Source of the DNA: a virus
Taxonomy: Duplodnaviria; Caudoviricetes
DNA: 41,044 nucleotides
Reading direction: 5' to 3' (one strand)
Virus record (IMG/VR): IMGVR_UViG_3300044723_000587
Span: 1-41,044 of that record
A program made the position numbers and the translations under genes. The notes beneath the pieces are model-generated. The model was not told where the DNA came from, searched no databases, and was given only the letters and a program-made list of their open reading frames with translations. Positions 3 to 28,000 of the stretch are shown here, one piece after another (position 1 is the first letter of the stretch; every line of letters starts with the position of its first letter).

Positions 3-476
3 ATGAAAAAAGATGAGATGTTAGTACCAAGATTAGATTTCCTTATGCCGAAGAATTTTTTCCTTAGCGAAGAATGGCAGTTAAACTTTGGAGTAGATGG
101 TAATACTGCAATAGGTAGAGTAGCAGAATTGAATCCAGAATGGGTAATAGAAGTAGTAAATAACTTAAACCATAGGTTAACGGATGTACTGCATGATTTT
201 AAAGGTATATACTCAGAGGATGAGCATTTCGTACCAAGAATATCTACTGAAGTTTCTGATGATAGGGTTAACGGATACACTAACCTTCAAACCTACCGAT
301 TATGTTTAGTATTAGATAACGAGCAAGTAGTACCTAATCCCTTAACAAGATTCTTAGAATTAGTACAAGAGAATGAATTTGAATCTAATGATATTGATAT
401 TATCAATTGGAATGAGGTAATTGAGAGATACTCTGATAGCATTCTTTTAGAGCATGATTTTTACGCAAATAAATAA
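3..476 (+). CDS. Hypothetical early protein (start may lie outside the window)
   Basis: 157-aa ORF at the window edge, acidic, no recognised motif. Confidence 0.6.
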   Translation: MKKDEMLVPRLDFLMPKNFFLSEEWQLNFGVDGNTAIGRVAELNPEWVIEVVNNLNHRLTDVLHDFKGIYSEDEHFVPRISTEVSDDRVNGYTNLQTYRLCLVLDNEQVVPNPLTRFLELVQENEFESNDIDIINWNEVIERYSDSILLEHDFYANK

Positions 477-532
477 GATACTCTGATGAGGATTTAATAT
501 CCGAAACTACTCTTAATTGAGTAGTCAGTATC
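477..532 (+). ncRNA. Type I hammerhead self-cleaving ribozyme
   Basis: Stem I GATACT(477-482)/AGTATC(527-532); core CTGATGA(483-489); stem II GGAT/ATCC with TTAAT loop; GAAA(503-506); stem III CTACTC/GAGTAG with TTAATT loop; GTC triplet 524-526, predicted cleavage after C526. Confidence 0.95.
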
Positions 533-559
533 ATAAGATACCAATTTAAATAACACACA

Positions 560-925
560 ATGAAATACGCAAGAAAATGTGATTACACAGGGAAAGGAAT
601 GAATACAGGATATGTATTTATTGATGATTCCTGTATGATAGATGATAGAGAATTATTTATCAAAGAATTAAGACAAGATAGAGAAGGTATTATTAACTTG
701 ATACCAAAAGATATCAATGATATTAAAGAATTTGATAATTCTTGTTATCTAACTGAAAAAGAGATAGAGCAGTTATCTAATAAAGTAGCAAATGCATTTA
801 ATAATACTGAAACTGATGAAGAATTATGCGATATAGCATATGCAGTAGATTATTATTATTGGACAGAATGGGAAGATGAATATGAGTATGAAGAAATTAA
901 TGGAGTATTAACTGAAATAGAATAG
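560..925 (+). CDS. Hypothetical acidic phage protein
   Basis: 121-aa ORF with AT-rich start context; ARKCDYTGKGMNTGY N-terminus and YYWTEW C-terminal motif. Confidence 0.75.
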   Translation: MKYARKCDYTGKGMNTGYVFIDDSCMIDDRELFIKELRQDREGIINLIPKDINDIKEFDNSCYLTEKEIEQLSNKVANAFNNTETDEELCDIAYAVDYYYWTEWEDEYEYEEINGVLTEIE

Positions 926-3728: not shown

Positions 3729-4137
3729 TATAGAGGAAGTTTATTCTCAATCCTTATCTGATGAGTTTTCTATACAAGTTAAAAAGCCGTTAGGATTTAG
3801 TGTAGTAAATTATGGAGTAAAGATTCAAAAGTTTAATAGTAAGATTGAATTATTAAACTGCTCTAAGAGTGGTAATTATTTCCAAGAATTTACAGAGGAT
3901 GAGTATAATTTATTTTATCAATACGGATGGAAGGAGGGAGGAGTAAGACTATCTTTATTAAATTACAAAAGAAAGTTAAATTTAGTAAACGATAAAATAA
4001 GGATAGAAATTAATACTCGAAAGAATAATAAACATATATCTAAATTAAAGTCAACAAGAGAAAATTTGTTGGTTAGATATGCAACCAGAAATAAACAATT
4101 AAATAAAATTAAATCAAATGAAAAAAAACATTTTTAA
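3721..4137 (+). CDS. Hypothetical protein, basic C-terminal helix
   Basis: 138-aa ORF overlapping both neighbours. Confidence 0.75.
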   Translation: MYSIEEVYSQSLSDEFSIQVKKPLGFSVVNYGVKIQKFNSKIELLNCSKSGNYFQEFTEDEYNLFYQYGWKEGGVRLSLLNYKRKLNLVNDKIRIEINTRKNNKHISKLKSTRENLLVRYATRNKQLNKIKSNEKKHF

Positions 4138-4720
4138 AGAATTATCTGCAGTTTCCATAAAAGGAAAGACAGATAAAAAAGGAAAGTTTGATTATATGTC
4201 TTGGGCTACGGCTTGGAGTATGATCAAGTCAGAGTACCCTAATGCACAGAGAAAAGTATATGAGTCAGAACACACTGGACTAAACTTTTTTACTGATGGT
4301 AAGACTGCATATGTTAAGGTAGGAATTATAATTAATGATATGGAACATATTGATTACCTACCAGTTATGGATTTTAGAAATAATTCTATAACAATGGAGA
4401 AGTTAACATCTATGGATGTAAATACTGCAATACAAAGATCAACTGCTAAGGCAATTGCTATGCATGGATTAGGATTATCATTATGGATTGGAGAGGATAC
4501 AATTATAACTACTCCAGCATCTAATGTAGTTAGTAAGAATCCATTACCTACAAAGCAAAAGTCAGTACAATTAAATATTGGAGATGCTAACTGGGATAGA
4601 GTTATGAAGTATATTGTAGATAATAAAGAGTTAGGATTACCTAAGATTGTTAAGGCACTTGAGACTAAGTATGATATTAAGGCAAGTGTTAAGAAAGAAC
4701 TATCAAAGCTTATCAAGTAA
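4118..4720 (+). CDS. Sak3/DUF1071-like single-strand annealing protein
   Basis: YMSWATAW, LPVMDFRNN, DVNTAIQRSTAKAIAMHGLGLSLWIGED motifs; lies near exonuclease and SSB. Confidence 0.85.
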   Translation: MKKNIFKELSAVSIKGKTDKKGKFDYMSWATAWSMIKSEYPNAQRKVYESEHTGLNFFTDGKTAYVKVGIIINDMEHIDYLPVMDFRNNSITMEKLTSMDVNTAIQRSTAKAIAMHGLGLSLWIGEDTIITTPASNVVSKNPLPTKQKSVQLNIGDANWDRVMKYIVDNKELGLPKIVKALETKYDIKASVKKELSKLIK

Positions 4721-5055
4721 TGGAAGACATTACTTTATACGATCTACTTAACTTAAAACTATCAAAGTTAACGTGGACAGAAAAAATTCATGAGAGTAAA
4801 ATTTCAAGTGAAGAAGGATTCTCTATAGAATTAGATTATTATAAAAATATTGGTAAGAATAAAGATAAAGACCAGTTACTTGTAAATATTTACTATAAAC
4901 ACATAAACATAGGTGCATTTGGATCTATAGAAAAAGAAGAGTCGGACCAATTTGCTAAGTGGTTTATTGATCAAGCTGAATTAATTGACAAGTCTGATGA
5001 GCAACATGAGAAATTTTTAGAGATTGAGGGTAAGGATAAATTTAAAAACTTATAG
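4720..5055 (+). CDS. Hypothetical protein
   Basis: 111-aa ORF, TAATG coupling with the upstream gene. Confidence 0.7.
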   Translation: MEDITLYDLLNLKLSKLTWTEKIHESKISSEEGFSIELDYYKNIGKNKDKDQLLVNIYYKHINIGAFGSIEKEESDQFAKWFIDQAELIDKSDEQHEKFLEIEGKDKFKNL

Positions 5056-5056
5056 T

Positions 5057-5794
5057 ATGTATCAAATATTAGAAAAATTAAAAGATGATAAGAATTATTA
5101 TGGAGAGTTTGGTCAGCAGTATCTATCAAATTCTGATATAATAACTTTATTAAACGATCCTAAAGAATTTAGGAAGCCAAAGGAGGTAACAAAGGCAATG
5201 CTACTGGGGAGATATTTCCATACTGCTATGTTAGAGCCAGATAAGTTAGATTCTAATGAGTTTATAGATATAGATGTGTCAAGTAGGAATACTAAGAAGT
5301 ATAAGGAAGAATTACTTATACAAAATAAAAGTATTATAATGCTTTCTAAGGAAAAGTCTGGTATTAATAATGCAATATCTACTATGAAGAACAATTTAGA
5401 ATTCTATGATGCTATTTATGATTTAGATAATACATATGAAGTACCTGCGGTACATGAAGTTATGGGTATTATGTGGAAAGGTAAGGCAGATATTGTAGCT
5501 AAGGATATGCTAATAGATCTTAAGACTACCTCAAACATCAAAGACTTTAAGTATAGCGCACGAAAATATAATTATGATAGTCAGGCATACCTATACCAAC
5601 AATTCTTCAACAAACCTCTTGTATTCTACGTTGTAGACAAGTTAACGTTGGAGTTAGGAGTCTATCATCCATCACAAAAGTTTTTGGAGTATGGAAAAGA
5701 GAAAGTAGAGCGAGCAATCGAAGTGTATAACAAATTTTATAGTAAAGATGCTAAAGAAGATATTGAAACGTACGTCATTAAAGAGGTACTTTAA
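5057..5794 (+). CDS. PD-(D/E)XK exonuclease (DUF3799/RecE-like)
   Basis: LSNSDI, GRYFHTAMLEP, KGKAD, IDLKTT, YNYDSQAYLY; probable start 5057. Confidence 0.85.
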   Translation: MYQILEKLKDDKNYYGEFGQQYLSNSDIITLLNDPKEFRKPKEVTKAMLLGRYFHTAMLEPDKLDSNEFIDIDVSSRNTKKYKEELLIQNKSIIMLSKEKSGINNAISTMKNNLEFYDAIYDLDNTYEVPAVHEVMGIMWKGKADIVAKDMLIDLKTTSNIKDFKYSARKYNYDSQAYLYQQFFNKPLVFYVVDKLTLELGVYHPSQKFLEYGKEKVERAIEVYNKFYSKDAKEDIETYVIKEVL

Positions 5795-26581: not shown

Positions 26582-28000
26582 CTATTGTATATCAGAACAC
26601 GCTACTATAGATTTAACAATACCATCTATATACGCTCCGCTTGATTGTACATTATATCCTTGATTAGCATAATCTTCAGGAGGTAATGCTTGTTGTTGAA
26701 CAGGAGACCTTTCTACAGTACTTCCATCAAACCAAACAGGTCCTGTATCTTTATACTCTCTTACCCCAACTTCTACTATCCAGTCTCTTAACCCTCCACC
26801 ATCATTAGCATCAAAAGTCATTTTGTAAAGACCAGCAGCTAAAGGGTTTTCTCCGTTTTCATCTGTATATATCCAGTCATGCAAACCTAATACTCCATTT
26901 TGTTGCCCTATTATAGTAGTCTGAGGAAAATTTGCTGAAGCATAATAACTTGAATTAGGATTTGAACTTCCGTAAGCATCAACAGGAACATGATAATAAG
27001 TTGCTTGATTAGGAGCTGCACATACTGTGGTTGGATCAGTTCCTTTAGCAAGCCTTATACTGCCCTGTATTCCTGTTAATAATCGAGGGCAATCTACTTT
27101 AAGTCCCCACCAAGAACCACAAGGAGAGTCTACTGTAATAGTTAATATATTATTTGAAACTCCAGGAGGAGAAGGAACAACCATAGTAGCCCCCCTGTAT
27201 TCCATTCCAGGTGAAGGCCAAGGAGTTCCAGGAGTTCCAAGGGATGAATAGTAAGAGTATGGAGGTAGATTAGGAGCTAAAGCCCTGTGAGGAGCAAAAG
27301 GATTAGAAGGTACTAATAAAGAGTCAGGTAAAGTAGGAGGTCTTTCAAAATAATTCCAATTTAAAAGTGTGGACTCATACGTTCCTGCGTTATTTGACAA
27401 ACCTGTCCATCCTAAAGGTGCTACTTGAGACCCTACATTCCAAGGTCCTGTAGCAACAAACGCCTGGGTATTAGCATCCCATATATATTCTTGACCTGTA
27501 GGAGAATAATTATCACTACCAAATTCTGTAGTCATTGTCTCTGAAGTTCCAACAAAACAATCATCTGAAGAATCTGGTCTTGGAAGAGCATCAGGTGATC
27601 CTATTAATCCTGTTTGATAACCACCAACTAAAGCACTATACTCTGATGCTGTAACACCATTATAACTCCAAGTACATTGATCGGGAGAAGGAAAAGTAGT
27701 AGTGTTTAATTGCCCAGAACTAAATGTTATTATTGCAGCTCCTGAAGTAGACCCTAAATTTATATCTATAGTATACCTACCCGTACCTCCGCTATTCTGC
27801 CATTGTGTATTACATGCAAGCGAACAAGTAGGGCATGGCTGAGGAGGGCCTAAAACCCCTGAAGTCATTACTCTACTAAAAGATCCAAAAGTATATATAC
27901 CATCAGATGCAACTGTAGTTAAAGCCGCATCAGAATATAATTGTGTTGCTGAAGAAAATGATACTCCAGCCCAATATACTGTAGGTGTTGTACAAGCCAT
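26582..28000 (-). CDS. Putative tail fibre/appendage protein
   Basis: 472 aa rich in Thr/Ser/Gly/Pro with CPTC and other Cys; inside the tail cluster. Confidence 0.6.
   Translation of the reverse strand: MACTTPTVYWAGVSFSSATQLYSDAALTTVASDGIYTFGSFSRVMTSGVLGPPQPCPTCSLACNTQWQNSGGTGRYTIDINLGSTSGAAIITFSSGQLNTTTFPSPDQCTWSYNGVTASEYSALVGGYQTGLIGSPDALPRPDSSDDCFVGTSETMTTEFGSDNYSPTGQEYIWDANTQAFVATGPWNVGSQVAPLGWTGLSNNAGTYESTLLNWNYFERPPTLPDSLLVPSNPFAPHRALAPNLPPYSYYSSLGTPGTPWPSPGMEYRGATMVVPSPPGVSNNILTITVDSPCGSWWGLKVDCPRLLTGIQGSIRLAKGTDPTTVCAAPNQATYYHVPVDAYGSSNPNSSYYASANFPQTTIIGQQNGVLGLHDWIYTDENGENPLAAGLYKMTFDANDGGGLRDWIVEVGVREYKDTGPVWFDGSTVERSPVQQQALPPEDYANQGYNVQSSGAYIDGIVKSIVACSDIQ

Follow-up and report, generated by a model that had tools for sequence, protein, structure and literature searches.

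A conserved 3' hairpin arm is predicted to re-use the stem I strand of a putative intergenic hammerhead ribozyme in phages

The virus DNA analysed here (the whole stretch of 41,044 nt, below called the window) contains a type I hammerhead motif at 477-532, in the intergenic space between two small open reading frames (ORFs), and directly behind it a short 3' arm that can fold back on one strand of the ribozyme's own stem I. In the reading that we hold with moderate confidence, the motif likely cuts an early message after C526, and the arm hairpin likely shields the new 5' end and blocks its re-pairing. Judged by sequence comparison, the arm is a real, conserved feature that some members of a known ribozyme class carry and others lack; readings of the surrounding sequence as a translation switch, an upstream decoy or an insertion scar are unsupported. 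The original prediction had combined the stop codon, the competing hairpin and the upstream duplicate at 426-437 into one switch, with the scar as an alternative. Of these, the conserved competing hairpin stood, whereas the dependence on translation, the role of the duplicate and the scar did not.

The capsid and primase-like proteins of the window match those of phages of Flavobacterium, Cellulophaga and Maribacter, and we infer a host within the Flavobacteriaceae, which fits the A-rich leader lacking a Shine-Dalgarno sequence. DNA near-identical to the window is present in estuarine and marine sequencing runs. Among cultured phages, a blastn search with the cassette returned four weak matches only (E 0.9), and Maribacter phage Panino contained no cassette pattern. 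Flavobacterium phage elemoE_10-3D (L471, MT497078.1, approximately 27,090-27,155, minus strand) has one hammerhead-like motif, in which a TAG overlaps stem I, stem II is mismatched and the arm is absent. The features of the locus are compiled in Table 1.

Table 1. Features of the hammerhead locus, with positions in the window
Feature	Position	Strand	Remarks
Upstream ORF (gene 1)	3..476	+	157 aa, no PHROG family
Duplicate of stem I 5' strand and CTGAT (12 nt)	426..437	+	gene 1 codons R-Y-S-D; not a conserved RNA element
TAA stop of gene 1	474..476	+	adjoins stem I; arrangement class-wide
Stem I 5' strand GATACT	477..482	+	pairs with AGTATC 527-532
Catalytic core CUGAUGA (C3-A9)	483..489	+	invariant or nearly so in alignment A1
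Stem II	490..502	+	4 bp, loop UUAAU; 3/4 pairs changed on both sides
Core GAAA (G12-A15.1)	503..506	+	basis: sequence, alignment A1
Stem III	506..525	+	4/6 counted pairs changed on both sides
GUC triplet	524..526	+	predicted cleavage 526/527; basis: sequence and hammerhead consensus
Stem I 3' strand	527..532	+	common to stem I and competing hairpin
Competing/product hairpin GTATC-ATAA-GATAC	528..541	+	5 bp, AUAA loop
A/C-rich leader	542..559	+	unstructured, no Shine-Dalgarno; cleavage site to ATG 33 nt
Downstream ORF (gene 2)	560..925	+	121 aa, no PHROG family; relatives with and without cassette

The hammerhead consensus core (C3-U4-G5-A6-N7-G8-A9, G12-A13-A14-A15.1 and U16.1-H17) is found at 483-489, 503-506 and 525-526 within the three-helix layout, with helices II and III closed by loops and helix I open, and the hammerhead fold is the minimum free energy (MFE) structure of 477-532 (-15.2 kcal/mol, z -2.44). 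In 11 aligned GATACT cassettes, 99.4% of the cells of stems II and III are paired, compared to 21-45% in slid-alignment controls, and 7 of 16 pairs are changed on both sides. This covariation supports a ribozyme under selection with predicted cleavage. The letters of stem I vary among families with pairing kept, which follows in part from the construction of the search. Alignment A1 leaves out L010, which has a long stem III insert, and holds L012 off by one column in stem II. Rfam returned no match to the motif at the gathering score or at E <= 10, and the same applied to RF00163 (Hammerhead_1) alone, whose threshold of 34 bits was not reached; some relatives score 30-34 bits. A loop II pseudoknot, taken as at least four pairs with the 3' tail, was considered and rejected, as 11 of 12 GATACT cassettes offer three pairs at most and the class value of 0.21 equals that of the null (0.20) closely. 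In L149, L297, L220, L438 and L006, the core is a variant that has one more U, placed between A9 and stem II.

Relatives were collected by protein searches and by scanning viral, metagenome and genome collections for patterns. This gave at least 466 loci, from which a helix filter yielded at least 199 distinct type I hammerheads. Three of the pattern scans covered 29/64, 2/64 (metagenome) and 55/64 collection parts. The inner stem I pairs are moreover fixed in every pattern, and for both reasons the hammerhead set is a sample. In the metagenome scan, repeats failing the helix filter dominate, and new rows came from 2 of the 40 loci listed. The metatranscriptome runs X16-X19 contain 5-14% of the sequence words, as short contigs. 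Two contigs from RNA runs that start at 521-524 were discarded as evidence of cleavage, graph branching at an invariant stretch explaining them equally well.

A competing 3' hairpin had been predicted at 528-541; these coordinates are right, and the hairpin is conserved and recurs with other letters. The arm is letter-for-letter identical in all 12 distinct GATACT cassettes listed, and the hairpin is present in all 11 viral loci that had been picked on the 5' half alone. Across the 12 cassettes, positions 1.7-1.15 have an identity of 1.00, compared to 0.69 in stem II, 0.41 in stem III, 0.38 in the upstream 10 nt and 0.78 in the next 10 nt, and in ten other families the same positions range from 0.42 to 0.83. 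The genes that follow these 12 cassettes are of six kinds. The 3' 18-mer has 22 viral matches, 13 behind a hammerhead and 9 elsewhere, the latter apparently by chance. Covariation of the hairpin, suggested as a check in related phages, is not seen within the GATACT family because its five pairs never vary, and the invariance of the arm could reflect descent or homogenisation.

The arm recurs beyond this family. A strict local hairpin formed with the stem I 3' strand was counted in 34 of the 199 hammerheads listed and in 11 of 59 families, compared to 3.4 +/- 1.6 families in a tail-swap null (0 of 2000 swaps reached the observed number). The hairpin definition behind these counts was set after data inspection, related families were counted side by side, and host G+C does not enter the null. 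Counting one per family gives 7.6 versus 2.9 in the null (P 0.02), and a mirror control with upstream hairpins gives five families, which is the null level. Over twelve settings, the number of families exceeds the null two- to threefold. With the two discovery families removed, 9 versus 3.1 families remain in the main setting, while strict settings give P values of 0.03-0.27, the strictest not being significant; a looser MFE test finds 39 versus 19.8 rows and 13 versus 6.7 families. By type, the strict hairpin is present in 6/18 AGACAG rows (T4-like phages with tRNA clusters), 7/10 AGGG- rows and 5/7 AGTGG- rows listed, and in the CTGTCT, ACCCT and CCACT types its geometry is alike, with one free 5' A, 4-5 bp and a loop of 3-8. 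It is absent from 165 of the 199 hammerheads listed, including all 10 GGTACT rows, which have an identical 3' strand.

These data also bear on the possibility, in our view unlikely, that the arm arose as a neutral duplication of 10 nt, became fixed in one cassette lineage and was carried further by recombination between cassettes, with the hairpins of other families arising by chance. The lack of within-family covariation, the armless state of most cassettes, the first tail letters also kept by the GGTACT family (0.83) and an enrichment that fades at strict settings would agree with it. It does not readily account, however, for an arm identity of 1.00 beside stems at 0.41-0.69 and a following 10 nt at 0.78, nor for 11 of 59 enriched families with upstream mirror hairpins at the null level. 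As the window leader past 542 is the leader that stands directly behind stem I in the hairpin-less rows of L218 and L297, the arm (533-542) appears to behave as an insertion of 10 nt when set against cassettes without a hairpin. The distance from the cut to the ATG has a median of approximately 26 nt without the arm (84 rows) and is 32-34 nt with it (11 rows); the length of unpaired leader is kept despite the arm.

Folding was predicted with ViennaRNA, whose nearest-neighbour energies omit tertiary contacts and Mg2+. At 37 °C the hammerhead (-16.7 kcal/mol) and the hairpin alternative (-16.5 kcal/mol) are nearly isoenergetic, and the probability of stem I depends on the transcript end, with 0.99 at 536, 0.62 at 541 and 0.22 at 560. 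We propose that stem I would form first during transcription, while the RNA ends at 536 (p 0.99), and would then compete about evenly with the hairpin (p 0.2-0.6, 37 °C); such an even competition would therefore damp cleavage few-fold rather than switch it. Damped cleavage is a predicted side effect of the arm and at the same time the main rival of capping. As a rival it would mean that the arm dims the precursor and sets the uncut share, so that read-through and cut messages coexist and the product hairpin is a by-product. We regard this as fairly unlikely. The near-equal energies of the two folds, the median stem I probability of 0.23 in 12 GATACT cassettes versus 0.43 in 92 other ACT cassettes, two distributions with wide overlap, and the hairpin being favoured more at 10-20 °C in the model all speak for it. 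However, the energies omit tertiary contacts and Mg2+, a 5-bp hairpin should, by our own estimate, exchange far faster than cleavage and would slow the reaction instead of partitioning it, and weaker stems would be a simpler way to tune the rate.

Capping, the reading that we prefer, places the selected benefit in the product. After the cut, the 528-541 hairpin is predicted to form almost completely (p 0.996), leaving one unpaired 5' A, and it would give the new end a structure and prevent re-annealing or re-ligation. The hairpin itself is weak (-3.9 kcal/mol), and the cleaved six-pair stem I duplex is worth -4.5 kcal/mol. It had been suggested that the hairpin both releases the product and caps the 5'-OH end of the downstream mRNA. 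The second part agrees with its predicted formation at that end, whereas release is probably unneeded because the six-pair duplex is weak and 165 of the 199 listed relatives do without the arm. Two points speak against the cap: RNase J, the nuclease most plainly blocked by a 5' hairpin, scored above the cut-off in none of five Bacteroidota genomes, and a 5'-OH is in itself a poor end for RNase E. In Bacillus subtilis, stem-loops at the processed 5' ends of cggR-gapA and glnRA stabilise the downstream mRNA, and the 5'-OH ends of glmS ribozyme products are open to trimming and decay, according to the accessible part of one preprint (10.1101/2023.03.12.532304). Those stem-loops, as described there, follow cuts by a protein nuclease in a host with RNase J1, whereas RNase J is not detectable in the likely host group here.

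A further use of the hairpin would be to hide the 5' strand of an excised single-gene RNA from stem I of the next cassette and thus to prevent self-ligation into a circle. Two loci, L297 and L220, each have two compatible cassettes, both with hairpins, in line with such a lock. In G004 (100% complete) and G005 (98%), however, a single pattern match carries the hairpin, and arrays of three or four cassettes (L109/L193, L369-L371) are hairpin-less, which makes this explanation very improbable.

As predicted, the TAA at 474-476 directly adjoins stem I at 477, an arrangement that is ordinary for the class. For the stop statistics, at least 150 nt of upstream sequence and an ORF of at least 45 codons were needed, and contexts sharing the same 16 nt upstream were counted once, leaving 174 of the 199 listed rows. 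An upstream stop lies within 3 nt of stem I in 86 of these 174 hammerhead contexts listed; in a smaller set this was the case for 8/10 GATACT and 64/117 other contexts listed, with a sharp mode at +1. The original prediction had explained the contact by translation, in that a terminating ribosome opens stem I and leaves its other strand to the hairpin, so that the RNA is cut only when gene 1 is not translated. With 440-485 forced to be single-stranded, as under a parked ribosome, the hairpin does reach a probability of 0.995, the stop is close in the 8/10 GATACT contexts, and of 80 stop triplets at the edge, 56 are the in-frame stop of the ORF, compared to a third expected from random frames. 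Against this stands that hairpin and abutting stop are independent of each other (14/30 contexts with the hairpin versus 72/144 without it have an abutting stop, 174 listed contexts, Fisher P 0.84), so that the contact does not appear to be a translation-termination switch by design. The ORF also runs into the core in 22 of 150 contexts listed, the core TGA serving as its stop in 11 of 150, and L010, L019 and L149 keep the hairpin with stops at -53, -9 and -16. Of the five CTGTCT contexts preceded by a long ORF, those with the hairpin included, none has its stop at stem I, and short gene spacers are common in the window (12/17 are <=3 nt in this arm of it, with mechanical starts). In naked RNA, moreover, and for this locus alone, the end of the ORF is predicted to misfold the ribozyme, an upstream decoy pair having a probability of 0.955 in 400-536 and of 0.37 in 400-560; by this prediction, translation would help cleavage and not hinder it. 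Taken together, a ribosome-operated switch is clearly improbable. Next to stem I, 89% of abutting and 75% of other contexts have an A, and the abutting stop would reflect close packing against an edge where A is preferred; such packing accounts for the non-random stop frame without a switch. It is physically plausible that terminating ribosomes affect cleavage as a side effect, while selection for ribosome switching seems to have left no sign in the sequences of the class.

The sequence AGATACTCTGAT is confirmed at 426-437 and 476-487, with no other copies in the window. The regulatory role that had been considered for the upstream copy found no support, since this copy is driven by codons, is not conserved and has no counterpart in a class-wide upstream pairing. 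An upstream match of at least 9 nt within 150 nt occurs in 2 of 130 listed contexts (the window and L012), both belonging to the gene 1 ORF family. In L001 and L019 the residues R-Y-S are kept and synonymous changes break the repeat, in L234 the repeat is lost, and L017 has the cassette of L012 and no R-Y-S-D segment. Over 190 listed contexts, the own upstream sequence did not pair better with the core than swapped upstream sequences (mean rank 0.51; window 0.28). A decayed upstream hammerhead at 426 was rejected as well, as the sequence behind it has neither a stem II nor GAAA nor a 3' strand. Gene 1 itself contains an internal repeat (window 12-35 and 219-242, DEMLVPRL and DEHFVPRI), and its relatives, in loci and in public runs, change to different C-terminal modules at approximately 250.

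The 9-nt sequence ATAAGATAC was likewise confirmed at 473-481 and 533-541 and is found nowhere else in the 41,044 bases on either strand; for five of its nine letters, the repetition follows necessarily from a hairpin built on the stem I strand. The suggestion that it is an insertion scar, that is, a target-site duplication left by an inserted ribozyme, is hardly credible. An exact 9-nt direct repeat is present in the window, L004 and L019, as expected of a duplication, but the copies differ at 9/12 sites, the repeat being 8 nt long at one site and 6 nt at eight, and the 3' copy is invariant where the 5' copy varies. An empty site with one ATAAGATAC had been proposed as a check, and the gene 2 relatives without a cassette (L001/L005, L006) lack the upstream 9-mer and show no single copy; they carry other upstream genes and are thus not exact empty sites.

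The gene neighbourhoods are those of a shuffling element, in that the same cassette stands between different gene pairs. In all five lineages found, a type I hammerhead stands behind the C-terminal module of gene 1, with the arm in three and without it in two, and gene 2 follows this cassette behind another gene in L297 and lacks the cassette in L001/L005 and L006. In public runs, other genes are joined behind an identical arm. From these neighbourhoods the cassette looks like a recombination joint for gene shuffling and may double as such beside its putative role in RNA processing. The window also encodes a Sak-like single-strand annealing protein and an exonuclease VIII (4118-5794), and this pair could recombine via short cassette homologies. 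The PeSL cassettes of T4-type phages are alike in being short repeats between non-essential genes with shuffled flanks (Arbiol et al. 2010, PMC2839356, as far as accessible). They consist of a promoter and a terminator, whereas the cassette of the window consists of a ribozyme and a leader, and its recombination is deduced from gene neighbourhoods alone.

Other structured RNAs were observed along with the cassette. A second one lies in the window at 1389-1457, between a stop at 1385 and an ATG at 1476 (z -3.8), directly behind the stop and before an A-rich leader like that of the hammerhead. It has no Rfam match, and among 27 viral pattern matches there is one homolog (L507), with two compensated pairs in the inner hairpin; relatives are present in contigs of RNA runs, too. 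Its UCUA at 1403-1406 could pair with UAGA near 1439-1442, and we consider it a candidate for a ribozyme or for an element of RNA processing. Behind the CTGTCT hammerhead of T4-like phages with tRNA clusters, there is often a structured RNA with an ACCTT-GTGGTGTAG motif that ends near AAACCACA and has no Rfam family. The first helix of this RNA can re-use the stem I strand, and it stands directly 3' of the hammerhead in L022, L040, L044, L066, L093, L099, L450, L454, L457, L458, L461 and L463. Marine Flavobacteriales MAG contigs contain a conserved AATACT-type hammerhead before a gene, with a GAATTTTAA-like sequence upstream (L315, L319, L342, L345, L349, L352, L354, L378, L417, L418 and L427).

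The hairpin of the synthetic insulator RiboJ is a separate add-on. In the window, the hairpin would use the stem I strand of the ribozyme and compete with catalysis, and the cassette is natural and without a Shine-Dalgarno sequence. The layout is otherwise RiboJ-like, with a hammerhead, a 5'-terminal hairpin in the predicted product fold and a free leader, which is a likeness of working and not of membership; in RiboJ, the transcript cuts itself to a uniform 5' end, behind which lie a hairpin and a leader for ribosome loading (PMC8942793, accessible part). For the hammerheads of the viroid ELVd, which alternative pairing silences once they have cut during transcription, the accessible text of PMC8865084 likewise describes an active fold that is favoured during transcription and followed by a competing fold. 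That system differs from the local 5-bp hairpin in the mRNA of a DNA phage, where there is neither a rod-like replicon nor a rolling circle.

Type I hammerheads that flank genes have been described in phages and prophages (Perreault et al. 2011, PMC3088659; PMC6155905; PMC6765202) and are also mentioned in PMC13725137, in the parts of these papers that are openly available. It was proposed in PMC3088659, again from the accessible part, that they cut long transcripts into gene-length messages. The hammerheads described there resemble the one studied here in being intergenic among small uncharacterised genes, with several per genome in relatives, whereas the motif of the window has no loop II pseudoknot and is not scored by RF00163. 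Within the openly readable papers, we found no account of a 3' arm that re-uses stem I; the alignment supplement of PMC3088659, which is not among them, may hold such cassettes.

The cellular role of phage hammerheads is stated to be an open question in the accessible text of PMC6155905 and PMC6765202. The cassettes described here offer natural paired controls for it, given that the arm is present or absent in otherwise near-identical cassettes, by which product capping can be told from damped cleavage. A bolder reading, tentative and fairly unlikely in our judgement, is that phages repeatedly evolved a two-state part, in which a single 14-nt element, the isoenergetic 3' hairpin, sets the cut share, tipped by temperature or by ribosomes that end at the abutting stop, and then caps the message; if true, phages would possess a tunable RiboJ of natural origin, and a first concrete control mechanism for their hammerheads would be known. 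The contact of stop and stem I in approximately half of the 174 listed contexts indicates that ribosomes on stem I are compatible with these ribozymes, a point of relevance to the use of ribozyme parts in synthetic operons.
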